Positions 13,196 through 60,357 of a stretch of 64,000 nucleotides of DNA are shown here, piece by piece. The number at the start of each line of letters is the position of its first letter. Position 1 is the stretch's first letter. The notes under the pieces were generated by a model. It was not told where the DNA came from. It saw only the letters and a program-made list of their open reading frames with translations, and ran no database searches. Origin of the DNA: an uncultured Gemmatimonadota bacterium (GTDB lineage: Bacteria; Blakebacterota; Blakebacteria; Blakebacterales; Blakebacteraceae); assembly GCA_964637695.1 (NCBI GenBank), contig CAZWVF010000002.1:3445-67444 (forward strand), in the 5' to 3' direction. Made by a program: the position numbers and the translations under genes.

Positions 13196-14098
13196 TTATC
13201 TTCTCTCGGCACTGTATGCCGCCATTTTGTAGACGAGCCTGGCAGCGATGGAATCGGAACTGTGGAATCCTTCGCGCGGGCTCAGCTCGACTACGTCGGT
13301 CCCAACTACATTCTTCTCCCTGAAGAGAGACCGGAGCAGTCTGAGCGTTTCGAACCAGTCGAAGCCACCCGGTACCGGAGTACCCACTGCACCCACCACC
13401 GAAGGGTCGAGACCATCCAGATCGATGGTTATGTAAAGATCCTCCCCCGGCAGAGATCGGAGGATCTGATCGATCTGCTCCCCCACCCTGCCCACAACCT
13501 GGTGAGCCAGGAAGGTCGTTCGCAGGTCACCTTCCAGAAGATGAGCTTCGCTCGAATCCACCGATCTGATGCCCAGAGCAGTCACATGCACGCCCATATC
13601 GTAGATCCTGCGCATCGGACAGGCGTGATTGAAGCGGGAACCGTGATAGGTGTCTCTCAGATCTGCATGTGCATCGATCTGAAGAACACACAGATCGGGC
13701 CAGATTTGCCGGTGCGCCCTGACGAGAGGATAAGTGATAGAGTGTTCTCCCCCCAGAGCCACCAACATGCGTTTTTCATTTATCAAGCCTGCTGCAGTCT
13801 CTTCGACCACCAGTGCGGCAGCTTCCGGATCTGTCGGCAGATCGGGAGCGGGATGGGTTGCAATTCCCCCCACCTCTTCGACCGGCACGAATCCAACCTC
13901 CTCGTCGTAGAACTCTATATGATGACTTGCCTCCACAATAGCGGCCGGTCCTTCCGATGTCCCTCTTTTCCAGGAGCAGGTTATGTCGAGCGGCAGCGGC
14001 AGGACCTGGATCGTACTTTTCTGTGGATCGGACAGATCGGGAGGCAGGTTCAGAAAGTTCGGGAAGGATAGATCGGGAGCCCCTGTCAGGTCGTTCAT
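13196..14098 (-). CDS. speB: Agmatinase / ureohydrolase family.
   Basis: Arginase-family Mn-binding motifs GGEHSIT, DAHADL and DLDGLDP. Confidence 0.8.
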   Translation of the reverse strand: MNDLTGAPDLSFPNFLNLPPDLSDPQKSTIQVLPLPLDITCSWKRGTSEGPAAIVEASHHIEFYDEEVGFVPVEEVGGIATHPAPDLPTDPEAAALVVEETAAGLINEKRMLVALGGEHSITYPLVRAHRQIWPDLCVLQIDAHADLRDTYHGSRFNHACPMRRIYDMGVHVTALGIRSVDSSEAHLLEGDLRTTFLAHQVVGRVGEQIDQILRSLPGEDLYITIDLDGLDPSVVGAVGTPVPGGFDWFETLRLLRSLFREKNVVGTDVVELSPREGFHSSDSIAARLVYKMAAYSAERR

Positions 14099-14189
14099 CG
14101 TCTTGACTCAAAGGTTTCGGGTGGTCGATGGCCTTCCGGTCCAGGACACCAAGTTAACCCGCTGGACAGGTGAAATGTCTAATTCTTCC

Positions 14190-14218
14190 TTGACCGTATC
14201 ACGATTGCCCATTAGCCT
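14190..14218 (+). promoter_or_regulatory. Sigma70-like promoter candidate for the aro leader.
   Basis: TTGACC (14190..14195), a 17-nt spacer, then TAGCCT (14213..14218). This would place the transcript start at about 14225. Confidence 0.3.
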
Positions 14219-14228
14219 GTCCCGCCTG

Positions 14229-14339
14229 ATGCGCACTTCGAACCTGCAGATGACGGCTCTCCGGAGCCTGACGAGCGGCTGCTGCTATTATTATCAGCCA
14301 CAGGGAGAGGTACGCGGATTCCGGAGGTCCGAAGGCTAA
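14229..14339 (+). CDS. Putative Tyr-codon leader peptide of an aro-operon attenuator.
   Basis: ATG 14229 ... TAA 14337..14339 encodes MRTSNLQMTALRSLTSGCCYYYQPQGEVRGFRRSEG, with three consecutive TAT codons at 14286..14294. The stop lies 28 nt upstream of the intrinsic terminator. No SD is present; it may be leaderless. Confidence 0.4.
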   Translation: MRTSNLQMTALRSLTSGCCYYYQPQGEVRGFRRSEG

Positions 14340-14366
14340 CTTGGGATAAAACGGAAAGCCCTTAAG

Positions 14367-14414
14367 GCGGGCGCGCTCCTCTCGATAACGGGAGGGACGC
14401 GCCCGCTTTTTTTT
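14367..14414 (+). terminator. Rho-independent terminator/attenuator hairpin immediately upstream of the chorismate mutase RBS.
   Basis: GC-rich stem GGCGGGCGCGCTCC / GGAGGGACGCGCCCGC with an approximately 10-nt loop, followed by T8 (14407..14414). Then AGGAGAGAG and ATG at 14429. Confidence 0.7.
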
Positions 14415-14428
14415 AGGAGAGAGTCAGG

Positions 14429-14689
14429 ATGCACGGAACGATTACACAACTGCGGGAAGATATCGATCGCATAGATCGATTCCTCGTCGAACTGCTGAAC
14501 CAGCGGGCCACTGCGGTCGTGCGGATCGGTCAGATCAAGAAGAGGGAAGGTCTGCAGGTCGAAGACAGCTCCCGGGAAGCGGATGTCGTGAAGCGGGCGG
14601 AAGACTCAAACCGGGGCCCGTTCAGCAGAAACGCAATTCGCAATCTCTTCAAGGCGATCATGTCGGAATCGCGCAAACTCCAGGCATAG
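14429..14689 (+). CDS. Chorismate mutase (AroQ class, CM_2).
   Basis: 86 aa all-helical, with the LREDIDRIDRFLVELLNQRA pattern typical of AroQ-type chorismate mutases. Confidence 0.75.
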   Translation: MHGTITQLREDIDRIDRFLVELLNQRATAVVRIGQIKKREGLQVEDSSREADVVKRAEDSNRGPFSRNAIRNLFKAIMSESRKLQA

Positions 14690-14711
14690 AGAACTTAAGA
14701 AGGCGGATCAA

Positions 14712-15725
14712 ATGGTCATCATCATGTCCCCCCATGCCACCTGTGCAGAGATCGAATCTGTGATCGACATCATTCACCGCGATGGCTACCAGACACATCG
14801 CTCCGCCGGTCAGAGCCGCACGATCATCGGTGTGATCGGTACAAGTATCGATCTGGATCCAAGGGATTTTGAACTGATGAACGGGGTCACCGAAGCGGTC
14901 AGGGTCACCGAACCTTATAAACTCGCCGGCAGGACCTTCAAACCTGAATCAACCATCGTCGAAGCCTCGGGTGTCGCATTCGGTGGAAATACGATCCCGA
15001 TTATCGCAGGTCCCTGCTCGGTAGAGAACAGGGAACAGATCATAATGGTGGCCGGGCTGGTGGCGGAGGCAGGTGCGAAAGGACTGCGCGGCGGAGCATA
15101 CAAGCCACGCACCAGTCCCTACTCCTTCCAGGGCCTGGGAGAAAAGGGCCTGCAGCTGCTGCGCGAAGCAGCCGATGAATTCGATCTCATTGCCGTAACA
15201 GAAGTATTGGAATCGGGCCGCATCGGGCTTGTGAGCCAGTATGCAGATATCCTGCAGCTCGGTGCCCGCAATATGCACAACTTCACCTTCCTCCGGGAGC
15301 TGGGGGAGCAGCAGAAGCCCGTTCTGTTGAAACGGGGCATCTCCGCCACCATCGAGGAATGGCTTCAGGCTGCTGAATACATCCTGGCCGGCGGAAACAG
15401 CAAAATCATCCTGTGCGAGCGCGGTATCAGGACTTTCGAGACCTATACCAGGAACACAATGGATATCAGCGCCATACCGGTTATTCACAAACTGAGTCAC
15501 CTGCCGATCATCGCCGATCCGAGTCATGGGACCGGCCGCCGCGACAAGGTTCTTCCGATGGCCAGAGCGTCAATAGCAGCCGGTGCCGACGGATTGATGG
15601 TCGAAGTGCATTCCGACCCCGATAACGCCCGCTCCGATGGAGCGCAGTCGCTCCGTCCTGAACAGTTCGAAATACTGATGAGTGAAATCAGACAGATGGC
15701 CGCTGTTCTCGACAGGAGTATCTGA
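14712..15725 (+). CDS. aroF: 3-deoxy-7-phosphoheptulonate (DAHP) synthase, class I-beta (Thermotoga type) with an N-terminal regulatory domain.
   Basis: IIAGPCSVEN, GAYKPRTSPY.F.GLG and DPSHGTG motifs of KDSA/DAHPS I-beta. Has an approximately 70-aa N-terminal ACT/FL-like domain. Confidence 0.85.
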   Translation: MVIIMSPHATCAEIESVIDIIHRDGYQTHRSAGQSRTIIGVIGTSIDLDPRDFELMNGVTEAVRVTEPYKLAGRTFKPESTIVEASGVAFGGNTIPIIAGPCSVENREQIIMVAGLVAEAGAKGLRGGAYKPRTSPYSFQGLGEKGLQLLREAADEFDLIAVTEVLESGRIGLVSQYADILQLGARNMHNFTFLRELGEQQKPVLLKRGISATIEEWLQAAEYILAGGNSKIILCERGIRTFETYTRNTMDISAIPVIHKLSHLPIIADPSHGTGRRDKVLPMARASIAAGADGLMVEVHSDPDNARSDGAQSLRPEQFEILMSEIRQMAAVLDRSI

Positions 15726-15727
15726 AG

Positions 15728-16819
15728 ATGCCCTTCGAAAGGATATCTATCTGGGGGCTGGGACTTATGGGTGGTTCGCTGGCGGCGGCGCTGAAGGCGA
15801 AAGGATATGCCGGTACGATCACAGGCATCTCCAGCCCTGATTCTCTCCGGAAGGCCCGTGATGCCGGATTCATAGACCACGGGTATCCGCACGACCGCTT
15901 CGATGAAGGCACCAGAGGTGCGAATCTGATCGTCCTGGCTTCTCCCATTTCAACGATACTCGAGAACCTTGACCGGCTGGGGGATTGTGTCGAGGATGGA
16001 GCAGTTGTCACCGACGTCGGATCGACCAAGAGCGCTGTCGTCGAAAAGGCCGCAGGAGTTCTGCCGGATAGCGTGGAATTCATCGGCGGGCACCCGATGG
16101 CCGGATCTGAGGCTAAGGGAATATCAGCGGCAGACGCGTATCTGTATGAAAATGCGGTCTGGGTGCTGACACCGGATCGGGAGAGCGACTCTACTGGAGA
16201 ACTCGCAGCTCTGGCGGAATCGGTTGGTTCCAAAGTTGTCATCACCGATCCGTACACCCACGACCTTATTGCTGCCCGGATAAGTCACCTCCCCCAGCTG
16301 CTGGCCACTACCCTTATGAATGTGGCCGGCGACTGGAATGAGGACGAAGATCTCACCCTGCGTCTGGCCGCCGGCGGATTCAGGGATCTCACGCGGATTG
16401 CATCGAGCCCCTATGAAACGTGGAGTGATATTTTCGAGACGAACAGGGTCGCGATCCTCGAATCACTCGACACTCTGATAAGAGGTCTGGAAGATACCCG
16501 CGAGAAGGTCTCCGCAGGCACGCTGGCCGGTGATTTTGAACGGGCTAATCTGCTGAGGCTTTCGATCCCGCGGGACACGAGAGGATTTGTAATCCCCCTT
16601 CACGACATCCTGGTGGTCGTCAGGGATGAGCCGGGAGTTCTGGCAACCATCGCAGGCTGCCTTGCTCCTCACTCGATAAATATCCGTGACATAGAGGTAT
16701 TGAAGGTCCGTGAAGGTGAAGGGGGAACCATGCGGCTGGCCTTCTCGACTCCAGAGGAAGCCGGAACCGCCGTAAGGCTCCTCGCAAAAGAGGGTCTCAG
16801 GTCGTGGGTCGAGGAATGA
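15728..16819 (+). CDS. tyrA: Prephenate (arogenate) dehydrogenase with a C-terminal ACT domain.
   Basis: Rossmann GLGLMGGS N-terminus, PDH domain and C-terminal ACT-like domain. Confidence 0.8.
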   Translation: MPFERISIWGLGLMGGSLAAALKAKGYAGTITGISSPDSLRKARDAGFIDHGYPHDRFDEGTRGANLIVLASPISTILENLDRLGDCVEDGAVVTDVGSTKSAVVEKAAGVLPDSVEFIGGHPMAGSEAKGISAADAYLYENAVWVLTPDRESDSTGELAALAESVGSKVVITDPYTHDLIAARISHLPQLLATTLMNVAGDWNEDEDLTLRLAAGGFRDLTRIASSPYETWSDIFETNRVAILESLDTLIRGLEDTREKVSAGTLAGDFERANLLRLSIPRDTRGFVIPLHDILVVVRDEPGVLATIAGCLAPHSINIRDIEVLKVREGEGGTMRLAFSTPEEAGTAVRLLAKEGLRSWVEE

Positions 16820-18174
16820 TGACCACCGATCTGAAAATGAGGATAAGACCCTCCCCGGCCTTGAGGGGAAGAGTGAAACCGCCCGGAGACAAGTCGATAA
16901 GTCACCGTGCGTTGATGATCGGTGCGATCTCGGAGGGCGAAACGGTCATCCGGAAAATCGCACCGGGCCACGATGTTGCCCATACATCTGCATGTCTGCA
17001 GACCCTCGGTTCGGTGATCGAGAGAAGCCGTGACAACAGGGAGATGCGTGTAACAGGAAGTGGAGCATATGGAACCGGATCGGACAGGTATGCCGGTAAC
17101 TCTGTCCTGAAGGTCCCCTCCCGGGACCTTTACTGTGGCAACTCCGGCACAACCGCCCGTTTGCTGGCGGGGCTGCTGACCGGCCTGGGCCTGCCTGCAA
17201 CGATCACCGGTGATGAGAGTCTAATTGCCCGCCCGATGGAGAGAGTTGCCATTCCCCTGGAGTTGATGGGTGCCCGGATAAATCTGGCAGCCGGTGGAAC
17301 CCTGCCGATCACGCTCACCCCCGGCGCTCTCTCCGGTATCACATATGAGAGCCAGGTGCCCAGCGCACAGGTGAAATCGTGTGTCCTTCTGGCCGGTCTC
17401 GGTGCCGACGGGATAACGGATTATCATGAAGCGATACGCAGTCGCGATCACACCGAAAGGATGCTGGCCGGCTTTGGAGCCTCTGTCACCGGCAGGGATC
17501 TGGATGGAGAAACCGGTCCATGTTCTGTAACACTCGTGCCGGGTGATCCACTTACAGGCAGAGAAGTGAATATACCGGGTGACATTTCCAGCGCTCTCTA
17601 TCTCGTGGTTGCGGCCCTGCTGCTTCCCTCTTCAGAACTCCTGCTGGAGGATGTCGGACTCAATCCGGGCCGCCGCCGGGCCCTCGATGTTCTCATCTCC
17701 ATGGGAGCTGATATCCAGATCCTCGATGAACGTTCCGTCTGTCATGAACCGAGAGCCGACCTTCTGGTCAGACATTCCGGTTTGAAAGGTACCGGGATTT
17801 CGGGTCCGACCGTCACCTGGCTGATTGACGAGGTTCCGATCCTGGCGGTAGCAGCGGCCTTTGCTGAAGGGGAATCTTATTTCAGAGATGTCGGTGAGCT
17901 TCGCCTGAAAGAGAGCGACCGGATATCGGCGATCACCCGAAATCTGAAGGCACTCGGTGCTGAGGTTGAGGAATACGACGATGGATTCTCTCTGAAGGGA
18001 GGAGACGGGTACGGCGGTGCTGAGTTCATCAGCTCTGGTGACCACAGAATCGCCATGGCCTTCCACGTTGCTGCTCTTGCCTGCAGCGGCGAGAGCACTA
18101 TTCACAACTACGATTCGATTTCAGTTTCGTGGCCCGGTTTCAGGGAAACGATTGAAGCCCTGGGAGCAGGTTGA
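16804..18174 (+). CDS. aroA: 3-phosphoshikimate 1-carboxyvinyltransferase (EPSP synthase).
   Basis: LRGRVKPPGDKSISHRALM and LCGNSGTTARLL motifs. Confidence 0.9.
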   Translation: MGRGMMTTDLKMRIRPSPALRGRVKPPGDKSISHRALMIGAISEGETVIRKIAPGHDVAHTSACLQTLGSVIERSRDNREMRVTGSGAYGTGSDRYAGNSVLKVPSRDLYCGNSGTTARLLAGLLTGLGLPATITGDESLIARPMERVAIPLELMGARINLAAGGTLPITLTPGALSGITYESQVPSAQVKSCVLLAGLGADGITDYHEAIRSRDHTERMLAGFGASVTGRDLDGETGPCSVTLVPGDPLTGREVNIPGDISSALYLVVAALLLPSSELLLEDVGLNPGRRRALDVLISMGADIQILDERSVCHEPRADLLVRHSGLKGTGISGPTVTWLIDEVPILAVAAAFAEGESYFRDVGELRLKESDRISAITRNLKALGAEVEEYDDGFSLKGGDGYGGAEFISSGDHRIAMAFHVAALACSGESTIHNYDSISVSWPGFRETIEALGAG

Positions 18175-18175
18175 G

Positions 18176-19063
18176 ATGACCGGATTGAAACTGATCTACC
18201 TGCTGGGAGATCCGGTCTCCCACAGCCTTTCACCCGACTTCCAGAACGCCGGCTTACAGGCACTCCGACTGCCCTTGAGATACCTTCCGAGACAGGTCGC
18301 CGCAGACGAACTGGCCGCCCTTCTCAATGGATTGGGGCAATCCGGCATAGCCGGTGCCAATATCACCATTCCGCACAAGATCGCTGCTCTTTCCCTGCTT
18401 GACACCCTGGATGAAGAAGCCGCGATGATCGGGGCTGTAAACACGATCGTCGTTCGGGATGGAACACTGACGGGGTACAACACCGACATTGAGGGATTCC
18501 TGCGCGCATTCAGGGAGAGAAGGCCGGAAGGACCCGCCGGACGCGGTGTGCTTCTGATGGGGTCCGGAGGAGCGGCCCGTGCTGCCGCCGCGGGGATAGT
18601 GCGAGAGGGGCTGGCCGATCAGATCTATCTGCTTTCGCGCACGAGAGAGAAAAGTGCGCGGCTCATCGATATGATCAACAGGCACAGAAAAAAGGAAAAC
18701 CTTCTCGAAGTAACCCTGCTTGAGGATTTCGGTGATGTCGGTCCGGGTATCCGGGAATCTGTGGGGCTGATCGTCAATGCCACACCCGCTGGACTGAATG
18801 AAGAGAAGGAGACCGCTCCCCTCCCCCCGCTGGCGGGATTTTCCCCTCAAACCCTCTTTTTCGACTTCGTGTACAGTCGCACTCCAACCCGGCTCCAGCG
18901 CCACGCTGCGCAGGCCGGTCTCGATGTTGAAGATGGATTAAACACGCTTCTTTATCAGGGCATGAAATCCTTTTACCTCTGGACCGGTTCCGCTCCCCCC
19001 GAGCGGATCATGAGAGAAGCCCTGGAAAAAGCCCTGAAAGGAAGGAAAGGGGAAGAGGCCTGA
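18176..19063 (+). CDS. aroE: Shikimate dehydrogenase.
   Basis: LIYLLGDPVSHSLSPDFQNAGL and LLMGSGGAARAAA. ATG at 18176 lies 1 nt after the aroA stop and is in frame with the 18017 ORF. Confidence 0.85.
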   Translation: MTGLKLIYLLGDPVSHSLSPDFQNAGLQALRLPLRYLPRQVAADELAALLNGLGQSGIAGANITIPHKIAALSLLDTLDEEAAMIGAVNTIVVRDGTLTGYNTDIEGFLRAFRERRPEGPAGRGVLLMGSGGAARAAAAGIVREGLADQIYLLSRTREKSARLIDMINRHRKKENLLEVTLLEDFGDVGPGIRESVGLIVNATPAGLNEEKETAPLPPLAGFSPQTLFFDFVYSRTPTRLQRHAAQAGLDVEDGLNTLLYQGMKSFYLWTGSAPPERIMREALEKALKGRKGEEA

Positions 19064-20262
19064 TGCTGAGGTTCTTAACCGCCGGTGAAAGCCATGGACC
19101 GGCCCTCACGGGCATTATAGATGGTATACCGGCGGGTCTGGAGATCGGAGCTGATTATATCGATCGGCACCTGGCGCGCAGGCAGATGGGACACGGCCGG
19201 GGTAAACGAATGGAGATAGAACAGGACAGGGTCGAGATCGTATCGGGCATTCGATTCGGGAAAACGATCGGCAGTCCTGTGGCACTGAAAATCGAGAACA
19301 GGGATTGGATCAACTGGAAGGACAGGATGGCCGTCGACTATCACAACAACGATCACGGCAGGGTGACAATGCCGCGACCGGGCCATGCAGATTTTACAGG
19401 GGGTATCAAGTACGGCCACACCGCCGATTTGAGGAATGTCATGGAGAGATCAAGCGCCAGGGAGACGGCCATGAGAGTGGCGATCGGATCGATAGCCCGC
19501 CGGCTGCTGGAAGAATTCGGGACTGCAATCGGCAGTGTGGTAGAGAGTATCGGAGAAATCGATGCCGGGGAGTTGTTCGGAAATGACGGCAGGGAATTGC
19601 CCGACCTCGCTGCCATCGACAACTCCCCGGTACGCTGTCCGGCGGCGACCGGCGAGGAGGCCATGATCGAGGCAATCGATGAGGCAGGAGAGGATGGTGA
19701 TACCCTCGGCGGCTGTTTCGCCGTATGGGCGGAAGGTGTGCCGGCGGGGCTCGGATCATACGTGCAGTGGGATCGCAGGATAGACAGTCAGCTTGCTCGT
19801 GCGGTCATGAGCATTCCGGCCATCAAGGGAGTGGAGATCGGACGGGCATTTGAAATGACCCGCAGCCGCGGATCGGAATCACATGACGAATTCCGGCTTC
19901 AGGCCATAACAGGGGAACCGGGAATTATCAGACGTCCGACCAATCGCGCAGGCGGAATTGAGGGAGGAATCACAAATGGTGAACATGTGATCATCCATGC
20001 GGCAATGAAGCCCCTTCCCACACTCCGCCGGCCGACAGGTTCCGTCGATCTGGTTACAGGCAGGGAGAAGAGTGCGCATGTGGAGCGCTCCGATGTATGC
20101 GCTGTTCCCGCAGCTGCGGTGGTAGCCGAATCGGTAGTGGCTCTGGTTCTGTGCAATGCCCTGCTGGAGAAATTCGGCGGTGATACAACGGGCGGGATCG
20201 AGGCCGCTCTGCAGAGGTACACGGAATCACAGCCACCTCACCTTCGGGAACCGGAGGCATGA
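19063..20262 (+). CDS. aroC: Chorismate synthase.
   Basis: MLRFLTAGESHGPALTGIIDGIPAGL and GRSSARETAMRVA motifs. Confidence 0.9.
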   Translation: MLRFLTAGESHGPALTGIIDGIPAGLEIGADYIDRHLARRQMGHGRGKRMEIEQDRVEIVSGIRFGKTIGSPVALKIENRDWINWKDRMAVDYHNNDHGRVTMPRPGHADFTGGIKYGHTADLRNVMERSSARETAMRVAIGSIARRLLEEFGTAIGSVVESIGEIDAGELFGNDGRELPDLAAIDNSPVRCPAATGEEAMIEAIDEAGEDGDTLGGCFAVWAEGVPAGLGSYVQWDRRIDSQLARAVMSIPAIKGVEIGRAFEMTRSRGSESHDEFRLQAITGEPGIIRRPTNRAGGIEGGITNGEHVIIHAAMKPLPTLRRPTGSVDLVTGREKSAHVERSDVCAVPAAAVVAESVVALVLCNALLEKFGGDTTGGIEAALQRYTESQPPHLREPEA

Positions 20263-20801
20263 TGAACCTGGCGGCGCAGATCCGGGAAACCGGGAGACTC
20301 TATCTGACCGGTTTCATGGGAGCCGGCAAGACTGCGGCGGGCCGGGAACTGGCTGTTCGTGCCGGATGGTCGTTTTGCGATCTGGATGACGAGATCGAAA
20401 ACAGCACAGGACGGACTGTTTTCGAGGTTTTCAAAGAGGGTGAGGAGAAATTCAGAATGCTCGAGAGAGAGGCCCTTGAAAGAACCCTGGAATACAGCCG
20501 GAGGGTAATCGCACTGGGAGGCGGAGCCATCGCCTGGAGGGATAATCGCGAATATCTGGCAGATAAGGGAGTCGTGGTTTATCTGGACGTTGCGGCAGAT
20601 GTTCTCTTCGAGAGGGTACGGCACAGCACATCTGAAAGACCACTCCTGTCCGGATTTCAGGACATAGACCTGCTCAACCGCATTGAAACAGTACTGGAAA
20701 TGCGGCTCCCATTCTACGAAAGGGCGGATTTGATAATCGACTGCCTTCAGGCGAAAACAGCCGGCGACATTGCCGAGGAGATATATGGCCATTTCCAATG
20801 A
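20259..20801 (+). CDS. aroK: Shikimate kinase.
   Basis: P-loop GFMGAGKT. 180 aa. Overlaps aroC by 4 nt. Confidence 0.85.
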   Translation: MMNLAAQIRETGRLYLTGFMGAGKTAAGRELAVRAGWSFCDLDDEIENSTGRTVFEVFKEGEEKFRMLEREALERTLEYSRRVIALGGGAIAWRDNREYLADKGVVVYLDVAADVLFERVRHSTSERPLLSGFQDIDLLNRIETVLEMRLPFYERADLIIDCLQAKTAGDIAEEIYGHFQ

Positions 20802-21900
20802 CAGAACGGTTGAGATCCCGGTAGACCTCGGCAACTGCAGTTACCCGATCATCGTCGGGCACGGGCTGATCGATTCGATCGGCCGGCTTATGGTCAAACA
20901 CTCGCTTGAAGGCAAAGCCGCAGTGATCAGCAACCGTACGGTCGTGGACCTGTTCGGAGAAAAGGTTGAGGAGAGTCTCCGGCGAAGCGGATTCAGGAGC
21001 ACTTTCCATACAGTCGGTGACGGGGATGAATTCAAGAATCTGGATTGTGCCAGGGAGCTTTACGATGCCCTTCTGGACCTCAAGATCGAACGGGGAGATA
21101 CGGTCATCGGTCTGGGCGGAGGGGTTGTCGGTGACATTGCGGGATATGTTGCCGCCACACTGCTCAGAGGCATCAATTTCGTACAGGTCCCCACCACACT
21201 CCTCGCCCAGGTGGATTCATCGGTGGGGGGTAAGGTGGGAGTCAACCACGAGAGAGGCAAGAATCTTATCGGCACCTTTTATCAGCCCCGATTCGTCCTG
21301 GCCGACACAACGACCCTGGAAAGCCTGCCTGAAAATCAGATGAGGTCGGGACTGGCCGAGATAATCAAGTGCGGCTGCATCGGTAGCACCGCCCTGTTTC
21401 AGCTTGTGGAAACCGGGTACCGGGAACTCCTGAATCTGGATAACGGCATTTTGACCGGGGCGATCTCCTCCAGCTGCAGGATCAAGGCTGAAATAGTAGA
21501 AATGGATGAGCGAGACATGACCGGGGAGAGAGCTGTTCTGAATTTCGGTCATACTGTAGGACATGCGATAGAATCACTGTCAGGCTATACGGATTACCTC
21601 CACGGTGAAGCCGTCGCTACAGGAATGATCGCTGCGGGCTATATGGGAACAGAGATGACCGGCTTCCCCCAGGAAGATTTCGACAGACTCGTTACACTGA
21701 TAAAGGCAGCAGGTTTTCAGACAGACATCGGAAACTTCTCGGCCGCAGACATTATCGATCGCACGTACATCGACAAGAAAGTCACAGCAGGCAGGGTCGA
21801 GTACGTACTGCCTGAAAGGATAGGTTATGCTGTTTCGGGCAGGAAGGTTCCCGATGAACTTGTACGTAATGCCATCGGATTCATAAGGACCCTGCGGTGA
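20785..21900 (+). CDS. aroB: 3-dehydroquinate synthase.
   Basis: GGGVVGDIAGYVAAT and HTVGHAIE motifs. Start set at the internal Met (MAISNDRTV) adjacent to the aroK stop. Confidence 0.85.
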   Translation: MAISNDRTVEIPVDLGNCSYPIIVGHGLIDSIGRLMVKHSLEGKAAVISNRTVVDLFGEKVEESLRRSGFRSTFHTVGDGDEFKNLDCARELYDALLDLKIERGDTVIGLGGGVVGDIAGYVAATLLRGINFVQVPTTLLAQVDSSVGGKVGVNHERGKNLIGTFYQPRFVLADTTTLESLPENQMRSGLAEIIKCGCIGSTALFQLVETGYRELLNLDNGILTGAISSSCRIKAEIVEMDERDMTGERAVLNFGHTVGHAIESLSGYTDYLHGEAVATGMIAAGYMGTEMTGFPQEDFDRLVTLIKAAGFQTDIGNFSAADIIDRTYIDKKVTAGRVEYVLPERIGYAVSGRKVPDELVRNAIGFIRTLR

Positions 21901-22355
21901 CAGCCATCGTGAAACGTTTCCTCGTCCTGAACGGGCCGAATCTCAACCTGCTGGGTGAGAGGCAGCCGGAACTGTACGGATCGGCTGCTCTGGAGGAGAT
22001 CATCGAGAGACTTCACGATCATGCTGAAGATCTCGGGGTTAAGATCATCCATGTACAGTCGAACCATGAGGGAGAGCTGATCGAGGCGCTGCATGATGCG
22101 CGCAGATGGGCCGCAGGTGTCATAATCAATCCTGCTGCCCTGACCCACTATTCATATGCCCTCAGAGATGCTATCGCATCCACCGGCCTGCCGGCAGTCG
22201 AAGTACATCTGACCGATATAGATAAAAGGGAGGATTGGAGGCGTATTTCGGTAACCCGGGATGTCTGTATAGATCAGATCGCCGGGCACGGAGGGGATAG
22301 CTACCTGATGGCTCTGGATCGCCTGCTGCAGTACCTGTTACGACCCTCCGGGTGA
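21897..22355 (+). CDS. aroQ: 3-dehydroquinate dehydratase type II.
   Basis: [21 protein letters not shown] and the [12 protein letters not shown] segment of type II DHQase. Confidence 0.9.
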
Positions 22356-24008
22356 TCCTGCCTGTATTTTCTGCGCTTCTCTTTCATCAACCATGTCGCT
22401 GTGACAGGTGGCCTTTCCGTCATCATCAGCGCTGACGGCAAGAAGGGTCTTTTCGGCCAGTTCAGCGATTTCACCGATCTCCTTCGCTTCACCGGCACCG
22501 AAGAGCTCCAGGTCGCGATTGATCCTGACGGCGCACCAGTCATGACCGCACATCGAGCAGAAGTCTTCATCGACGTCATGATCTTCATCGTGAAACTCTC
22601 TGGCCGTTTCCGGATCAAAGGAGAGTTTTACGTGCTCGCTCCAGTCGAGAGCAGCACGGGCCCTGGTCAAGGCGTCATCCCTGTCACGGGTACCCGGAAT
22701 CCCGAGAGCCACGTCGGCGGCGTGTGCGGCTATCTTGTAGGCGATGCACCCCTGCTTGACATCATCCTTCTTCGGTAGGCTCAGGTGTTCCTTCGGAGTG
22801 ACATAGCAGAGCATCGCCGCACCGTGATAGGCGGCCGCCGTTGCCCCGATGCACGACGTGATATGGTCGTACCCCGGGAAGATGTCGGTCACCAGCGGCC
22901 CCAGAACGTAGAATGGAGCTCCGTGACAGATCCTGCGTGCGTATTTCATGTTGAATTCGATCTGGTCGAACGGAACGTGCCCGGGACCCTCGATCATGAC
23001 CTGGCACCCCCTGGCCCACGCACGCTCGGTCAGTTCCCCGAGCGTCTCCACCTCTCTCAGCTGTGCTTCATCGGTAGCGTCTGAAAGGCCGCCGGGGCGC
23101 AGGCCGTCACCGAGTGAAAAGCCGACATCGTATTCGCGCATGATGTCGCATATTTCGTCGAAGACCTCGTACATTGGATTCTGTTTGTTATGCGCCAGCA
23201 TCCATCTGGCCAGCAGAGATCCGCCCCTGCTAACTATGCCGATCAGGCGATCTTTGAGATATGGCAGGTGCTCCTTCAGCAGTCCCGCATGGATCGTGAA
23301 GAAATCGACACCCTGCCCGGCCTGCTTGACGATCTCGGTAAGAATGTCATCGTAGGTGAGCTCCTCGACACTCCGGCCGATTATCATGGAATAGATCGGC
23401 ACGGTACCAATCGGGACTGTCGCAGTCCGGATGATCGCTTCACGACATTCATCCAGATTCCCGCCCGTAGAAAGGTCCATAGCCGTATCAGCGCCCCACC
23501 GGACCGCCCATTCCAGCTTTTCGACTTCCCTGTCTGTATTGGAGGAAAGAGGTGAAGCCCCCAGGTTTGCGTTGATCTTTGTAGTAGCAGCCCTGCCGAT
23601 GCACATCGGGTCCAGGTTGTAGGACAGGTGCACTTTGTTTGCCGTAATGAGCATTCGACCCGCGGCTATTTCATCCCGGACCTGTTGCGGGGAGAGATGG
23701 GTTTCCCGTTCTGCTGCACGTTCCATCTCCGGAGTAATCATTCCCAGGCGGGCGTATTCGAACTGTGTAACGGCTTTAAACCGATCTGGTGCAACTGCAA
23801 ACTCCTCCCCCCTTTCCCACCCTTCGGGCAGAAAATCCCACGCGGTCCTGTCCGATGGCTCGGGCATCCCCGGCGTATCGGGAGAACTGAACGTATAAGG
23901 TGTACCGATTCGGGGTGGATTGGCAAAACTGCCCGGAGTCGTTCCCAGTTTATCTGTTGAGGGATTATTGCCGTGTGCCGGAATGTTCGTGCTCACAGAG
24001 CACCTCAT
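22338..24008 (-). CDS. thiC: Phosphomethylpyrimidine synthase ThiC (radical SAM).
   Basis: [17 protein letters not shown] and the C-terminal CSMCGHDWC motif. The ORF-track start (24044) lies inside the riboswitch. ATG at 24008..24006 follows the AGGAAAG of the riboswitch 3' end. Confidence 0.85.
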
Positions 24009-24090
24009 GCTTTCCTGCGCCGGTATGATCCGGATCAGGTTCAAGGGTATGCTCTCAGTCCCGCTCCCTGCAGGACACCCCTAGCCTTCT
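24008..24090 (-). ncRNA. TPP riboswitch (THI element) in the thiC 5' leader.
   Basis: Minus-strand sequence cuaGGGGUGuCCugcaGGgaGCgggaCUGAGAgcauACCCuugAACCUGAUCCGGAUcAUaCCGGCGcAGGaAAGC matches the THI-box consensus (GGGGUGC, CUGAGA, ACCUGAUCYGGAUAAUGCCAGCGNAGGGA). The SD-like AGGAAAG lies inside the 3' side. Confidence 0.85.
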
Positions 24091-24162
24091 GATACCTGGT
24101 GCCCTGAATCATAAATCCATCGTAATTCATCCTCCGCTGCATCCGCACCTGCTGCGTTGCGC

Positions 24163-51645: not shown

Positions 51646-53931
51646 TCACCGAACCGGGTCCTTCCCCGCTTCCACAGCCTTACGGATAGCCGCGCCCAGC
51701 TCTTTCAGTATAAAGGGCTTCCTTATATAATCCCTGATACCCAGTTCTCCCATTTTCTCGGGTGTAACAACCTCGCTGAAACCGCTTGTGAGAATAACCG
51801 GTATATCATCTCTCAATTTCATGACCTCCTCAATTAATTCCGTGCCTGTCATGTCCGGCATGATCTGGTCGGTTATGATTAAATCAAATCGATCGGGAGA
51901 TTTCTTGAACATTTCCAGAGCTTCTACACTGCTGATCATGACAGTGACGTCATAACCGAAATCCTGGAGCATTTCCCTGCCAAGATCAGCGATCGCCTCT
52001 TCGTCGTCCACAAAGAGAATCCGTTCCTGTCCTTTCAGATCGACTTCTTCTTCGGGGTCTTCGACTTCCGTTTCGATATCAACCCACGGCAAATAGACCT
52101 TGAAAGAGGTACCTTCTCCCGGTTCACTGTTAACAGTGATCTCTCCGCCGTGGCTGGCAACTATACCGTGAACCACGGACAGCCCCAGACCCGTACCTTC
52201 GCCTGTTTCACGTGTAGTGAAAAACGGCTCGAAAATCCTGTCTGCTATCTCCTTTTCCATACCACAACCAGTATCACTGACGGTCAGTCTGACATGCCGG
52301 CCTTCTTTGAGGTTCGGATGTGTCGTTATAAAATCTGCATCCACGTCAAACCGTTCCAGTTTTACTTCCAGCACTCCACTTGTATCGCGCATCGCCTGGT
52401 AAGCATTCGTACAGAGGTTCATCAACACCTGGTGCATCTGTGAAGGATCAGCGAGAATGGCACCTGCATCGGGACTGATATCCTGGCGAATCTCGATTGT
52501 CGACGGCAGAGTTGCATGAAGCAGTTTCAAGACCTCTTTGATGAGGAGCTGGAATTCAACGATAGTCTTCTCCTGTTCAACCTCCCTGCTGAAAACCAGG
52601 ATCTGTTTCACCAGATCCCTTGCGCGGTTGGCAGCTTTGTTCACATTGCTGAGTTTGGCATAGGCATCACTGTCCGGTGCCAGCTGGCTCTGAACCATCC
52701 CGAGGTATCCGAATATGGGTGTGAGGATATTGTTGAAGTCATGTGCGATACCGCCTGCCAGAGTACCTATTGTCTCCAGTCTCTGCGATCTTCTCAATTG
52801 GGTTTCAAGCTGTATTTTCTCCTGCGATGTTTTCTCTCTCTCGGCAACCTCCCTTTCAAGTTTGGCCAATACCTGTTCGAGCTCTTCGGTGCGCTCTCTC
52901 ACCTTCATTTCAAGTTGCTCCCGATGGTACTTCAATTCCTCTTCGGCCTGTTTCCTTTCGGTGATATCACGGATGATACCTACTGAACCGAGAAATTCCC
53001 GTGAATCCGCATCGTCCCCGCTCACATACAGTCCTGAACTGCTTACTTCCATAACTCTGGCACTATCCACCACAGTTGAAAGCTGGCCCTGGATAGTATC
53101 GATATCTCCCTTTATCTTTAACATTACTTCCAGGTTCCTGGTCCTGCGGTCATCGGTTCTTCTTTCATCGAACAGTTTGGGAGCCAGGGTATCACCTGTT
53201 TCACTGCCTCTGAGTGAAGGTAGAAGATCTGAGCGACCGGGAGGTGTTTCTTCCGGGGCTGCTATCAGCTCTCTGAAGTTCTTCCCGATTAATTCCTCAG
53301 GTGTATAACCGAGGTTCTGTATTGCATCATTCAAAAATGTGAAATTCCCATTCTTATCTATCCTGTAAACAATATCCGGGATGGTCTGGACTACAGTTCT
53401 GAACCTTTCTTCGATTGCCTTTAACTCACTCAACTTTGTTTCGAGTGTTGTGTTGGCCTGTGCCAGTTGGTCCTGTATCTCCACCAACTGACGATTATTA
53501 GTTACCGAATTGATGTATGTTGAGAGGAGGATATTGAGAATACGGTCACGATCAGGAAGAGAACCAGGCACAGGTACGGTGCAGTCGAGACAATCGATCA
53601 CGATTTCACTGCTGTACGGTCTGAACAGCAGGCCGTCCGCTCCGCATTCCAGGCTCTTTACAATTTCTGAAGTTTCCAGCAGCGGCATGACAAGTATCAC
53701 ACGCAGATCTTTTAAACAGTTGTTCCCTTTTATTTCGCGGCAGAGTTGAAAACCGTCCATACCGGGCATTTGCAGATCACTGATGACGATATCGGGCTTG
53801 ATCCTGTCCAGACAGGCAAGCGCCTCCATCCCGCTATGGGTGGCATGAACCTTATATCCAATCCCTTCAAGCAGAGATTTGAGCTTCACCGCCTGCGCAG
53901 GGCTGTCCTGGATTATCAGTACATGTTTCAT
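51646..53931 (-). CDS. Hybrid sensor histidine kinase with N- and C-terminal receiver domains and PAS.
   Basis: REC ([12 protein letters not shown]), PAS, HisKA ([14 protein letters not shown]), HATPase_c, and a C-terminal REC ([13 protein letters not shown]). Confidence 0.8.
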
Positions 53932-53979
53932 TCACATATCTCCCAGGACTCCTGTATCACCCGATCGAATTTTTAAGTG

Positions 53980-55089
53980 TCAGACCACAACTCTGTCGTT
54001 GTCGCTCATGTCCTGATACCGGTGCTGTATCTCATACACTTTTTCCAGGTTATCCAGAAACAGATCGACTACCTGAGGGTCGAAATGGCTGCCCCTCTTG
54101 TTTTTTACTATCTCACACGCAGCTTCATTTGGCATTGCTTTTTTATAGGGACGTTTCGTCGTGACAGCGTCGAATACGTCGGCAACTGCACAGATGCGTC
54201 CCATAATGGGGATATCCTCACCTTTCAACCCGTTAGGGTACCCATTTCCATTCCACTGCTCATGATGTGAAATGGCGATCACTTCACCCGCTTTCAATAA
54301 CTCCGATCTGGAATCACCGAGTATCCTGGCCCCCATGATTGTGTGCTGCTGCATGATCCCCCACTCTTCGGCATCCAGTTTACCGGGTTTAAACAGGATT
54401 TCTTCGGGGATGCCTATCTTCCCTACATCGTGCATCGGGCTGGCATGCTTCAGAGCCTCTGAATCACCGGGGGAGAGGTTCATGGCATTTCCCAGCATGG
54501 AACAGTAGTAACTGACACGGTTGATATGCGCTGCCGTGTTGGTGTCTTTGTATTCCGCAGCAACCGCCAGACGGTGGATCGTCTCCAGATAGGCTTCGTG
54601 GGTCTGGCGCTGTGCTATCGCCATTTCATCGAGCGTTTTACGAAGGGCTTCGGTCCTCTTGTCTACCAGAGCCTCCAGCTCAGCCTGGTATCGTCTCAGT
54701 TCATCCTGGTGTTCCTTGACTTTGAGAAGAGAGGCAGTCCGCACCTGCAGTTCGGTCAGGTCCACCGGCTTGGCGATAAAATCATTTGCACCGGCTTTGA
54801 CGGCCCTGAGACGGTCTTCTTTCCCGGAGAGCGCCGTTACCATGATAATGGGAAGATCCTGTGTTTCGGGGTGTTCCCTGATCCTGCGGACTACTTCAAA
54901 CCCGTCCATGCCCGGCATGTTCACATCCATAAGGACCAGGTCGATGTCCAGCTTCGACATTGCCAGAGCTCCTACACCATCAGAGGCGACCTCAGCACTG
55001 TGGCCCAGGGACTCAACCATCTCCTTGAAGACCGCCCTGTTCAGCTCTTCATCATCAACGATCAGGATACGATGCCGGTTTTTCTTCAC
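53980..55089 (-). CDS. Response regulator with an HD-GYP output domain (RpfG-like).
   Basis: REC (LVLMDVNMPGMDG) plus HD-GYP (MHDVGKIG...HHEQWNGNGYP). Confidence 0.8.
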   Translation of the reverse strand: MKKNRHRILIVDDEELNRAVFKEMVESLGHSAEVASDGVGALAMSKLDIDLVLMDVNMPGMDGFEVVRRIREHPETQDLPIIMVTALSGKEDRLRAVKAGANDFIAKPVDLTELQVRTASLLKVKEHQDELRRYQAELEALVDKRTEALRKTLDEMAIAQRQTHEAYLETIHRLAVAAEYKDTNTAAHINRVSYYCSMLGNAMNLSPGDSEALKHASPMHDVGKIGIPEEILFKPGKLDAEEWGIMQQHTIMGARILGDSRSELLKAGEVIAISHHEQWNGNGYPNGLKGEDIPIMGRICAVADVFDAVTTKRPYKKAMPNEAACEIVKNKRGSHFDPQVVDLFLDNLEKVYEIQHRYQDMSDNDRVVV

Positions 55090-55502
55090 CCTTGAACCTG
55101 TTTCTCAGCTCCTTCAATTCTCAATTGATCCAGAACACCGGGTATTTTATCGAACTCGGTCGATTTGTCGAAGAAATAACCGGCACCAAGTTCGAAGCAT
55201 TTGGTTCTGTACTGTTCGTACGGATAGTTGGTCAACACTATGACTGTTGTCTTAGGGTTGCTCCTGCTGATGTTCCGCAAAACATCCAGACCACTGCCAA
55301 GGGGCATTTTGATGTCCAGGATGACCACCTCCGGTGCCATTTCCCTGACAACCCTGGTTCCATCCAGTGCGTTCTCCGCTTCACCGACAACGCACACCTC
55401 GTCGAGACTGGATAAGAGCTCTGTTAATCTTGTCCGGATGATTTCAGAATCGTCTATGACAACTACATCCATCACACTCTCTCTGGCTCTGGTCAGTATC
55501 AA
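55086..55502 (-). CDS. Single-domain CheY-like response regulator.
   Basis: 138-aa receiver domain (VVILDIKMPLGSG). Overlaps the upstream gene by 4 nt. Confidence 0.75.
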   Translation of the reverse strand: MILTRARESVMDVVVIDDSEIIRTRLTELLSSLDEVCVVGEAENALDGTRVVREMAPEVVILDIKMPLGSGLDVLRNISRSNPKTTVIVLTNYPYEQYRTKCFELGAGYFFDKSTEFDKIPGVLDQLRIEGAEKQVQG

Positions 55503-55649
55503 GAATCTCTCTTCCGTCGCTGGATTTCATCTTTTCCGTGAACTCCCTCACCGGATCATACCCGGCTCATGCTGTGCGGAGTATCAGACGGATTCTGAAA
55601 TTGATGTAGGATAATCGCCCACGTACTTGTAGGGCTTTGTCCTACAAGT

Positions 55650-56282
55650 TTACTCAATCAGGTCATTCTGAATCGCGTAGTAAGTCAGCTCTGCGTTTGT
55701 CTTCAGGTTTAATTTATCCAGGATCCTCGCTCTGTAAGTACTGATGGTTTTGGCACTCAGGGAGAGCTGTTCAGCGATTTCCTTGTTTCCGACCCCAGAG
55801 GCGATCATACGCAGAACTTCATACTCCCTGTCTGAGAGTTGTTCGTGCAGCGGCTTGTCACTATCGACCTGGATATAGGCCGCCAGCCTCTGAGCAAGAT
55901 TGGCGCTGACATATTTCTGGCCGGCCAACACCTGCTGAATCGCGGATATCAGTTCGTCCGGAGCAGTATCCTTTGTAACGTACCCTGAGGCTCCTGATTT
56001 GAAACAGCGTACGGCATACTGCTCTTCCGGATGCATGCTCAGCATCAGGATATTCTGTTCCGGCTTCATCTCTTTCACCTGCTTGAGTATTTCTATTCCA
56101 CTTCGGCCGGGCAGGGAAATGTCAAGAAGGACCAGATCGTATTCATTCTTGTCTACCAGGCTGATTACCTCTTCACCTGTGGAAGCCTCATCGATGCTGC
56201 TGATATCTTCTATATCACTGAGGATCTGTTTAAGTCCCTCACGTATAAGCGTGTGATCATCTGCCAGAAGAATATTGATCAC
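55650..56282 (-). CDS. NarL/FixJ (LuxR)-family response regulator.
   Basis: REC (LVLLDISLPGRSG) plus a C-terminal LuxR HTH (LSDREYEVLRMIASGVGNKEIAEQLSLSAKTISTYR). Confidence 0.85.
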   Translation of the reverse strand: MINILLADDHTLIREGLKQILSDIEDISSIDEASTGEEVISLVDKNEYDLVLLDISLPGRSGIEILKQVKEMKPEQNILMLSMHPEEQYAVRCFKSGASGYVTKDTAPDELISAIQQVLAGQKYVSANLAQRLAAYIQVDSDKPLHEQLSDREYEVLRMIASGVGNKEIAEQLSLSAKTISTYRARILDKLNLKTNAELTYYAIQNDLIE

Positions 56283-59200: not shown

Positions 59201-60121
59201 AGAATCCTGGTATACAACACCCTGCAGCATCGTTTCGAATAGAGTCCGATACTTTTTCTCATTTGTTTTTAATGCATCAACAGCTTTATGCCGGTCGGTC
59301 ACATTAATTAAAGAGAGCACCAATCCAGATACTGTGCCGTCTTTTGCCTTCGTTGGCACGAGGCTCCAATCCCAAAAGGTGATTCCACGTTCGGGATTGT
59401 TTGCATATTCAAATGGCTTGGCATGAACCATGAAGGGTTCACCAGTGTTTACGACATTGGTGAAGATTTCCTCGTTTTCGGCATTCGGGTACAGGTCGAA
59501 GTGATTCTTGCCGTGGAAAAATCCGGGGTCCTTCTCGTCGGCATCTGCATATGCCCTGTTTACCTCGATGAAGTTGAAATCAGTGTCCAGGAAGGCAGCA
59601 AGAACGTGGGTGCTGGTCAGAATAGTTTCGAGCAACTCAACTGTTTCGTGCAGAGCATTCTCTGTACTTTTTTTCTCGGTGATATCAATCACATACTCGA
59701 TCATATGAGTAACATTATTGTCATCGTCAAAGACGGGATGCGCATGTACTTCTACCTCTCCCGGTTGGCCATCTTCATTAAAATGGGTGTGTTCCGTTAC
59801 CACGGGTTGATGAGTTTCAACGACCTTACGGAGTGGACATATGTGGTCTTCACCCTCACACGGTTTATCGCCCCTGTGGAACAGTGAATAACAGGTTACA
59901 CCCTTCATTTCAGGTTTGAATCTTGTTGCAGTATTGGCCATTTGAATCGTGTAATCGGAGACATCAATCACATAGATGGGATGATTAAGCGATTCGATCA
60001 CTTTGTAGAGAAATGAATCCTTCGTAATCCCCGGTTCTTGCGATCCCAGTTCTTCGATCTTCTGTTCGAGTTTCGAGATCTCCTGCAGAAGTTCTGCTTT
60101 ATTGCTTTTTTTAACAGCCAT
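56279..60121 (-). CDS. Very large multi-PAS sensor histidine kinase (HisKA_3/NarX-type kinase core).
   Basis: 1280 aa with at least 7 PAS/PAC modules and a C-terminal HisKA_3 (ASIAQTIHDELGQNLTA) plus HATPase. Overlaps the LuxR-type RR by 4 nt, suggesting a cognate pair. Confidence 0.8.
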   Translation of the reverse strand: MAVKKSNKAELLQEISKLEQKIEELGSQEPGITKDSFLYKVIESLNHPIYVIDVSDYTIQMANTATRFKPEMKGVTCYSLFHRGDKPCEGEDHICPLRKVVETHQPVVTEHTHFNEDGQPGEVEVHAHPVFDDDNNVTHMIEYVIDITEKKSTENALHETVELLETILTSTHVLAAFLDTDFNFIEVNRAYADADEKDPGFFHGKNHFDLYPNAENEEIFTNVVNTGEPFMVHAKPFEYANNPERGITFWDWSLVPTKAKDGTVSGLVLSLINVTDRHKAVDALKTNEKKYRTLFETMLQGVVYQDSEGSIISANPAAEDILGLAIDQMQGRTSVDSRWKAIHEDGSDFPGETHPSMIALSSGKPVRDVVMGVFHPGKEEHRWILINATPQFREGEEKPYQVFTTFNDITELHNTRRALSASVGFTDLVLNVQKDTFFIFNPASGKAVKWNQAFNHISGYSDEEIAELKVPDSYCTPRDLQKAIAAAEKILAGEDYIFTMELITKDGRKIPFEFSGSMIPGENEGEYFIAATGRDITERLKAEGELKKSEEKFRTLFELSPSSTVYTDLEGNIRMCNQRFIELHATKGDIQEQIGRNVAEFFPPEEHEHLASRIKRTIETVKNLGLVEYSMLREDGTIFPAETDCTVLMDIDGSPIGLIAQAQDITERKAMESALKEREKLYSSIVESMTDGLAVLNKDFEITYWNRAMEDIRGVTREEVVNQKRVPWEIFPYMEEQGMDILMKRAMDGQYTGIEDARHQLQDGSEVFTSESYYPLRSPEGDVDGIIVLARDSSESKKAQDAVRESEAKFRTLFTEMLNGFALHEIILDEEGNPIDYRFLEVNPAFESLTGLKASDIIGRTVKEVLPGIEDDWIQNYGKVAITGEPVTFEGFNAQLEKHYNAHAFCPREGHFAVIFVDITERKLMEEALITSEEKYRELIEKAGIAIMIYQPEDEITFFNDKFADLFGYSVDGITSKSLNSLVHPDDWHGLSAFLSDRIKGAELTTRFEFRGISQDGTERTIECDLADMDKDGVVVGQRLYMWDITNRKMIEHELLRSHEQLRMLSAHIQAAREGERASIAQTIHDELGQNLTAMNMDISWIEKNLLPEQEAVKEKADGIAGLIYETLQRVKRLSAELRPGLLDDLGIVAAIEWHADEFHKASGIKCKMDVDQQIPKLDKDTSVIVFRVFQEIMTNVARHAKATQVKVVFRLVDNQLVLEISDNGRGIKDEEIGKQTSFGIVSIKERARLLGGSVSFEAKRGRGTTVRMLIPMVEEGYSG

Positions 60122-60357
60122 CTTTGATCACACTCCTGTATCAAGATCCATATAAATCCTTGTTTCTATAATTACTGTGATTTTACATCAGGTACGGGCT
60201 TATGACAATTGGCCGAAAAATCGCAGTGTGAAGATGTAATCGCATGGTTGCATTGAGTAGCAAATGATATGAAAATCTGTATCGGTATTGCGAAATAGAC
60301 TGTCGTCACTTACTTGCTTTATTGCGATGAAACATCCACTTATGGGAGCACCAGGAA

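Follow-up and report, generated by a model that had tools for sequence, protein, structure and literature searches.

What signal controls a nine-gene aro/tyr operon in an uncultured Gemmatimonadota-like bacterium, and does the DNA directly in front of the operon hold the means to read it? We addressed this question in a 64-kb stretch of DNA (64,000 nucleotides (nt), called the window throughout), in which an earlier note, made from the letters alone, had proposed a tyrosine-sensing leader-peptide attenuator upstream of the chorismate mutase (CM) gene. The operon that the note had described, with tyrA and the whole shikimate trunk, was confirmed by Pfam: its genes encode CM (CM_2), DAHP synthase (DAHPS; FXD and type I), prephenate dehydrogenase with an ACT domain (tyrA), EPSP synthase (EPSPS), shikimate dehydrogenase, chorismate synthase, shikimate kinase, DHQ synthase and DHQase II (type II dehydroquinase). 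Neither pheA nor trp genes were found in the operon by Pfam. As it combines CM, tyrA and the common pathway and has no pheA or trp, tyrosine is a sensible signal for it. All elements of the leader lie in the 330-nt gap between the CM gene and a divergent arginase-family gene (13196–14098, minus strand). Five sequence features of an attenuator are found there, namely a short open reading frame (ORF), a cluster of cognate codons, a terminator, an antiterminator helix (2:3) and an anti-antiterminator helix (1:2). On the strength of this in silico analysis, we consider it likely that the leader acts as a ribosome-mediated (leader-peptide) transcription attenuator with charged tRNA-Tyr as its signal; the transcript is probably leaderless.

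The leader ORF is present as the note had read it, 36 codons long and with three consecutive TAT (Tyr) codons (the coordinates of all features are given in Table 1). In 19 genes of the window, 2.9% of the codons are for Tyr; in the six frames of the window as a whole, YYY is found just twice. We estimated how often such an ORF would arise by chance from 100,000 dinucleotide-preserving shuffles of the ORF. Open frames of ~36 codons alone were recovered in 11–28% of shuffles; an open frame with at least three Tyr in any five codons was recovered in ~3 × 10⁻⁴ of shuffles for the window and ~6 × 10⁻⁴ for the most distant homologous leader (L183, see below). A search with the 36-residue leader peptide against 1.84 billion protein representatives returned only spurious matches to long repetitive proteins.

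Homologous leaders were found in front of related operons. A search with CM identified three proteins of 80–81% identity on contigs L171, L177 and L180, all of which share the arginase/leader/CM-DAHPS-tyrA arrangement, and a search with DAHPS gave a tier of 68–72% identity with one member (P0015) on contigs L183/L184. L183 has 38% identity to the window in CM and 70% in DAHPS, and a different upstream neighbour gene. The gene order of the window operon is also found in L171 and L183. The window and these four contigs (L171, L177, L180 and L183) make up the five leader variants compared below. A Tyr-rich ORF in orthologous leaders, which had been named as a check on the proposal, is present in all four of the others, including the distant L183. 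The predicted peptides are MRTSNLQMMALRSLTSGWYYYYQPETEVRVLRRSAD (L171), MRTSNLHMEAHRSLTGGWYYYQPKREVRVLRRSIG (L177, with one whole codon lost), MRTSNLNMMALLSLTSGWYSYYQPETEVRVLRRSEG (L180) and MRTETPHKTACSVIRTWSYTYGYTDSGEVREVRRLRS (L183, 37 codons). In these four leaders the ORF is 35–37 codons long and every indel is one of whole codons. The Tyr clusters of the five variants read YYY, WYYYY, WYYY, WYSYY and WSYTYGY; each has at least three Tyr in five codons and always ends four codons before GAG GUR CG. Both UAU and UAC are used, which argues for selection on the meaning of the codons and not on the RNA sequence. In L183, the cluster consists of UAU, UAC and UAU and is preceded by UGG.

The leader is 92% identical across the close relatives, compared with 84–87% at the nucleotide level for the CM gene. 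Between the window and L183, identity is 78% in the 5′ end and region 1, 40% in the middle of the ORF, 65% in region 2, 55% in the hairpin P3 and 76% in the terminator, whose core is the same (regions as in Table 1). The core of region 2, AGAGGU.CG.G, is invariant in all five variants. The frame, the positions of start and stop, and the three-Tyr cluster thus persist in L183 where the nucleotides are otherwise randomised. Since the L183 leader is kept despite the changed neighbour, the element travels with the operon and not with the upstream gene. A covariance model built on the five leaders (R1) found no more homologues among 170 other loci and, as far as visible, the leader family is confined to this clade.

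Downstream of the ORF, the strong intrinsic terminator with its run of eight T was recovered as the note had described it, but the stem is not the simple 13-bp helix envisaged there. The stem (14364–14409) consists of a 12-bp lower helix with nine G-C pairs and an 8-bp upper helix, separated by a 1 × 1 internal loop and closed by the loop AUAA. It begins 24–27 nt past the leader stop codon, slightly closer than the 28 nt first given. The whole element, a 20-bp interrupted hairpin followed by U8 (14364–14414), has a folding energy of −36.9 kcal/mol. In a scan of the whole window it was the sole strong hairpin before a run of at least six T, the others being weak and inside genes. The distance from the end of U8 to the CM start codon is exactly 14 nt, as had been counted before, and a separate promoter after the terminator does not fit because this gap holds the CM Shine-Dalgarno (SD) sequence. 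As a separate observation, a strong hairpin with a T-run was found at none of the gene ends in the window, the leader terminator aside, and this genome seems to have few canonical intrinsic terminators.

We then asked if the leader RNA can adopt alternative structures. Its fold has a z-score of −3.96 relative to dinucleotide shuffles. Mutually exclusive antiterminator and terminator helices, whose existence the earlier note had left to be checked, were found both in single-sequence folds and with RNAalifold, and an anti-antiterminator in which region 1 pairs with the same region 2 exists as well. In the 2:3 antiterminator, GAGAGG..CGCG (14305–14316) pairs with CGCG (14372–14375) and CCUCUC (14378–14383) in the 5′ arm of the terminator, with only a 2 × 2 internal loop. 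In the 1:2 helix, AUGCGCACUUC (14229–14239) is also complementary to region 2, and the full pairing extends over 14229–14246 with 14301–14317. Region 2 further resembles the 3′ arm of the terminator (GGGAGGGACGCG), which is a classic signature of attenuators.

The balance between these structures depends on how much of the leader is present. The full-length RNA of all five variants folds into 1:2, two small hairpins, P3 and the terminator, and the terminator state is then ~19–20 kcal/mol better than any 2:3 state. When the transcript ends after region 2, 1:2 is the minimum free energy (MFE) structure in five of five variants. If it extends to the end of region 3, 1:2 and 2:3 differ by 1.7–5.6 kcal/mol. 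Among truncated transcripts, 2:3 was the MFE structure in four of five. RNAalifold, run without input from our model, behaved in the same manner: the full alignment gave 1:2 and the terminator, and the alignment without region 1 and the terminator 3′ arm gave 2:3 enclosing P3. The proportion of paired cells is 91–96% in the switching helices (91% for 1:2), and P3 has three compensatory pairs in L183. The L183 equivalent of the hairpin around the Tyr codons is different (GUAUACC/GGUAUAC) and places these codons in the stem. One further pairing, of UCCCGCC (14220–14226) with a GGCGGGA-like sequence at 14365–14371, was rejected, as it precedes the likely transcription start and its register shifts in L183.

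The promoter pointed out in the note, TTGACC-17-TAGCCT directly upstream of the operon, is seen in the sequence. All five variants retain the hexamers 17 nt apart; L183 has TTGACC-17-TAACGT with a spacer sequence unrelated to that of the window. A generic promoter scan missed the window promoter because its −10 element matches TATAAT at only three of six positions. In every variant the distance from the −10 element to the AUG is 10 nt. The 5′ untranslated region would therefore be ~2–5 nt long and the message effectively leaderless. No SD sequence is present within 20 nt 5′ of the leader AUG (14229), in contrast to the CM gene with its AGGAG. The leader message is thus probably leaderless or near-leaderless, with a 5′ end placed by the conserved gap, which fits the apparently leaderless peptide of the earlier proposal.

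In the model that we infer from these features, transcription would start a few nt before AUG 14229 and the leader ORF would be translated as a leaderless or near-leaderless message. If there is no translation, region 2 would pair with region 1 as it emerges, region 3 would stay free to form the 3:4 terminator, and transcription would stop at U8 (14414). When tyrosine is scarce, a ribosome would stall with UAU (14286–14294) in its A site and cover ~14271–14305, between regions 1 and 2. Its leading edge (~14299–14305) would abut region 2 and leave the core (14305–14316) free, and following ribosomes may also occupy the 5′-terminal region 1. Since 1:2 and 2:3 are near-isoenergetic, any penalty on 1:2, either steric or due to a following ribosome on region 1, should tip region 2 onto region 3. 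Region 2 would then pair with the terminator 5′ arm, enclosing P3, with read-through into the CM, DAHPS, tyrA and shikimate genes. When tyrosine is plentiful, the ribosome would cross region 2 and halt at the UAA inside P3, covering ~14322–14349 within the antiterminator loop; 2:3 would be blocked, 3:4 would form and transcription would terminate. The control logic first suggested for the locus, stalling at Tyr codons, is supported in silico: an antiterminator exists, the Tyr-rich ORF is present in the homologous leaders, and the element follows the operon.

Table 1. Features of the leader and the operon behind it (positions in the window)
Feature	Position	Strand	Description	Basis
Promoter	14190–14218	+	−35 TTGACC (14190–14195), 17-nt spacer, −10 TAGCCT (14213–14218)	Sequence reading
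Putative transcription start zone	14224–14228	+		Conserved 10-nt −10-to-AUG distance
Leader ORF	14229–14339	+	36 codons plus TAA (14337–14339), MRTSNLQMTALRSLTSGCCYYYQPQGEVRGFRRSEG	Sequence reading
Region 1	14229–14246	+	Anti-antiterminator 5′ strand, holds the AUG; AUGCGCACUUC...CCUG	Folds, RNAalifold
Small hairpin within ORF	14255–14268	+	GGCUC-UCCG-GAGCC	Folds
Tyr-codon hairpin	14277–14299	+	GGCUG...CAGCC, Tyr codons in loop	Folds
Regulatory codons	14286–14294	+	UAU UAU UAU (Tyr20–22)	Sequence reading
Region 2	14301–14317	+	CAGG GAGAGG UA CGCG G	Pairs with region 1 or region 3
P3 hairpin	14319–14356	+	Between regions 2 and 3; last ORF codons and stop codon near tip	Folds
Region 3	14364–14384	+	Terminator 5′ arm, also antiterminator 3′ strand (14372–14383)	Folding
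Region 4	14389–14414	+	Terminator 3′ arm and U8 tract (14407–14414)	Folding, sequence
CM SD and start codon	14415–14431	+	AGGAG (14415–14419), ATG (14429)	Sequence, Pfam
Nine-gene operon	14429–22355	+		Pfam

Several observations weigh against this model, whose geometry is not that of the trp paradigm. Region 1 lies ~40 nt upstream of the Tyr codons and would not be covered by the stalled ribosome. Nor would a terminating ribosome cover region 2, as the stop codon comes 21 nt after it. The steric arguments by which we infer that the switch could still work are the least secure part of the model. L171 keeps 1:2 as the thermodynamic optimum even with the ribosome footprint masked. The helices 1:2, 2:3 and 3:4 are near-invariant and provide no covariation for or against pairing, as is expected because each segment must satisfy two partners. 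The comparison includes only five variants, of which four are closely related. The −10 element is weak by E. coli standards. Finally, three related loci, L181 and L182 (labelled Gemmatimonadota, DAHPS 72%) and L189 (DAHPS 71%), do not have the leader and carry a different, non-homologous element.

Could the same switch operate without a ribosome? It could be set by a factor acting in trans, much as riboswitches and T-boxes are, and the ORF would then be incidental; candidates are a small metabolite, uncharged tRNA-Tyr or a protein that binds RNA. The missing SD sequence at the leader AUG would fit, as would the conserved ends of the peptide (MRT... and ...EVR..RR), which coincide with RNA helices and need no coding explanation. 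The Tyr codons of the window group sit in a hairpin loop, superficially like a displayed specifier, and pairing of the 5′ end with region 2 encloses several stems in one domain, a layout reminiscent of riboswitches. However, the would-be aptamer core between the helix strands is the part that is only 40% identical across lineages, and what is kept there is the frame and the Tyr codons. The indels in the ORF are all of whole codons, UAU and UAC interchange, and the Tyr codons of L183 are part of a stem instead of a loop. A bulge able to bind an NCCA end is missing from the antiterminator, and no Rfam family, T-box included, matched at E = 10. We therefore regard control by a trans factor as unlikely. 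Its most specific form, a new non-coding sensor of tyrosine status in which uncharged tRNA-Tyr or a metabolite binds the domain closed by 1:2 and the Tyr codons are displayed anticodon-pairing sites, seems to us very improbable.

Two other explanations would separate the leader from control of the operon. The element might be a free-standing gene for a ~190-nt small RNA (sRNA) or a small protein, with 14414 as its terminator, and the operon might be expressed by unregulated leak-through or from another promoter. It does have its own promoter and a very strong terminator, it is more conserved in the close relatives than the CM gene, and attenuator-derived sRNAs with functions in trans are known, e.g. 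rnTrpL. This reading has to contend with the 14 nt between U8 and the CM start, where no separate promoter fits, and with an element that stays with the operon when the upstream neighbour changes. A plain sRNA would need neither the dual complementarity of region 2 nor the energy-balanced states, and a small protein is hard to reconcile with a peptide whose middle is unconserved save for Tyr and which has no credible homologues in the protein search. We rate a free-standing gene as quite unlikely. A chance juxtaposition of a random Tyr-run ORF and an ordinary terminator draws some credit from how often frames of this length stay open in shuffles and from the trpA artefact described below, which shows that codon patterns such as WWW or YFW arise easily. 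Against it, the features are found together again in a lineage whose CM is only 38% identical, the Tyr cluster in an open frame has a shuffle probability in the 10⁻⁴ range in each of the two lineages, YYY is rare in the window, and the spacing of promoter, AUG, Tyr cluster and region 2 is fixed. Coincidence is hardly credible. The leader-peptide attenuator thus remains the reading that we prefer.

How does the putative attenuator compare with known systems? Using cmscan on 13900–14700 with E up to 10, we obtained only terminator-like chance matches and no Rfam leader family or T-box (RF00230), and there was no Rfam match in the L183 leader. With the enterobacterial attenuators (trpL, pheL/pheA, hisL, thrL, leuL and ilvL), the leader shares a short ORF in which codons for the end product stand in a row, helices 1:2, 2:3 and 3:4 that overlap, a rho-independent terminator before the first gene, and predicted termination by default in the absence of translation. 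In contrast to them, it would be Tyr-specific, has no SD sequence, would have its AUG at or near the 5′ end and has a long ORF of 36 codons. The initiation region itself serves as region 1, with the regulatory codons ~40 nt further downstream, and the stop codon is inside the antiterminator loop (P3) and not beside region 2. There is no sequence or Rfam similarity, and the phylum differs.

The nearest functional precedent, by analogy, would be the aroR leader upstream of the aroF operon of Corynebacterium glutamicum (Neshat et al, 2014, as summarised in PMC11802643), which contains Phe-Tyr-Phe and is reportedly Phe- and not Tyr-responsive. Going by its description, aroR is also a leader-peptide attenuator with aromatic codons in front of a DAHP-synthase operon in a non-proteobacterium, whereas the cluster in the window is Tyr (with or without Trp) and the operon contains tyrA and the whole shikimate trunk. 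Leaderless leader peptides have precedents too: 14 were predicted in Deinococcus deserti (PMC4007540), and polycysteine leaderless small ORFs in mycobacteria are Cys-responsive (bioRxiv 10.1101/834739). These are likewise mini-ORFs at the 5′ end without SD ahead of genes for amino-acid biosynthesis or tRNA synthetases; they differ in phylum and amino acid, and the 5′ end in the window is a predicted one. T-box leaders, e.g. those of tyrS and aromatic genes of Firmicutes (mentioned in PMC1262725), also read tRNA-Tyr charging through a choice of terminator and antiterminator. Unlike them, the window leader has no T-box sequence, Stem I, specifier architecture or Rfam match, and a ribosome would do the sensing.

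The earlier note had presented leader-peptide attenuation as classically proteobacterial and an example in this genome as notable on that account. This overstates the novelty. As of 2010, Proteobacteria and Actinobacteria were believed to be the only groups with leader peptides (PMC2965389); the second of these is the phylum of C. glutamicum with its aroR, and leader-peptide attenuators have since been found or predicted in Firmicutes, Deinococcus (leaderless) and Flavobacterium. What would be new here is the amino-acid specificity, the lineage and the geometry of helices and stop codon; the mechanism itself is familiar. The literature that we searched contains no described Tyr-run leader. If confirmed, it would be an example of attenuation in an uncultured Gemmatimonadota-like lineage of the Fibrobacteres–Chlorobi–Bacteroidetes (FCB) group and, to judge by these searches, the first case in which a leader-peptide attenuator uses tyrosine codons. 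The layout would be unusual in that one segment is both the leaderless initiation site and the anti-antiterminator strand, and in that the antiterminator loop holds the stop codon. The case would be one more indication that ribosome-mediated attenuation has arisen again and again in different bacterial phyla, and at ~190 nt the leader is a compact candidate part for tyrosine-responsive control. No concept is overturned, as the mechanism class is 45 years old and already known beyond Proteobacteria.

The description of the genome as FCB-type is reasonable: among named relatives, the best for ProS and for DAHPS (72% each) carry the label Gemmatimonadota, and the next tier, at ~55%, consists of Zixibacteria, KSB1, Latescibacteria and Ignavibacteria. 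Related operons without the leader show other arrangements. In L181 (2706–3000), L182 (257–490) and L189 (2230–2500), the spacer between CM and DAHPS is 230–295 nt long and has a conserved core, CCGATATACCC...GGTCGGGCACCGATGGC. It also has a short ORF; a U-rich terminator is absent, and Rfam gave no match. We regard this spacer as a candidate for a different regulatory element at the same operon. The mini-ORFs of these three loci, in which Tyr codons number no more than two and stand apart, were rejected as relatives of the leader for that reason and for want of homology. In L185–L187, a sister lineage of L183, the leader is absent, and tyrA is absent between DAHPS and EPSPS, where a 160-nt gap is found (3515–3673 in L185). 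This joint absence fits a link between leader and tyrA, as a single rearranged case. In the same contigs, two tyrosine-recombinase (integrase) genes lie upstream of CM (L185, 1–2216; also L186 and L187). In L188 (1126–3514; DAHPS 70%), two DAHP synthase paralogues flank CM, a glutamine amidotransferase gene precedes them and there is no leader.

A second set of loci turned out to be a false lead. In scans of genome and metagenome contigs with DAHP synthase, the matches listed were ~60–65% identical and mostly from Acidobacteriota; the close relatives were not among them. Many of these matches had mini-ORFs upstream of CM with WWW (MRWWWAARLWR...) or YFW (MIWRRYFW...), on the plus strand at 48 of 122 loci and on the minus strand at 4 of 122, the 48 including the window's own lineage and close relatives of it, counted more than once. 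We rejected the mini-ORFs as support because they are off-frame reads of the 3′ end of trpA (GCG GTG GTG GTG GGC = VVVGS, ...FADAVVVGSAIVE), and with a gene beneath them, the strand asymmetry is not a valid control. The order trpA-CM-DAHPS, with spurious ORFs 130–440 nt upstream of CM, was seen in L003, L006, L014, L026, L077–L079 and many other Acidobacteriota. The off-frame 3′ end of trpA is therefore a trap for automated searches for leader peptides.

Elsewhere in the window we found no other amino-acid biosynthesis operon. The segment at 14099–14189, beside the divergent arginase-family gene, is highly conserved in the close relatives (e.g. GGTGAAATGTCTAATT at 14170–14185) and is presumably the promoter or 5′ untranslated region of that gene. 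A thiamine pyrophosphate (TPP) riboswitch (RF00059) lies directly upstream of thiC at 23995–24092 on the minus strand and scores 65 bits, above the gathering score. The mechanically called thiC ORF (22338–24044, TTG start) overlaps the riboswitch and has 568 residues compared with 549–556 in members of its cluster. Given the overlap, the real start of thiC is probably further downstream. Finally, large multi-PAS histidine kinases are clustered with response regulators at 51646–62649; one of the proteins there has 1280 residues and at least seven PAS domains (56279–60121, minus strand).

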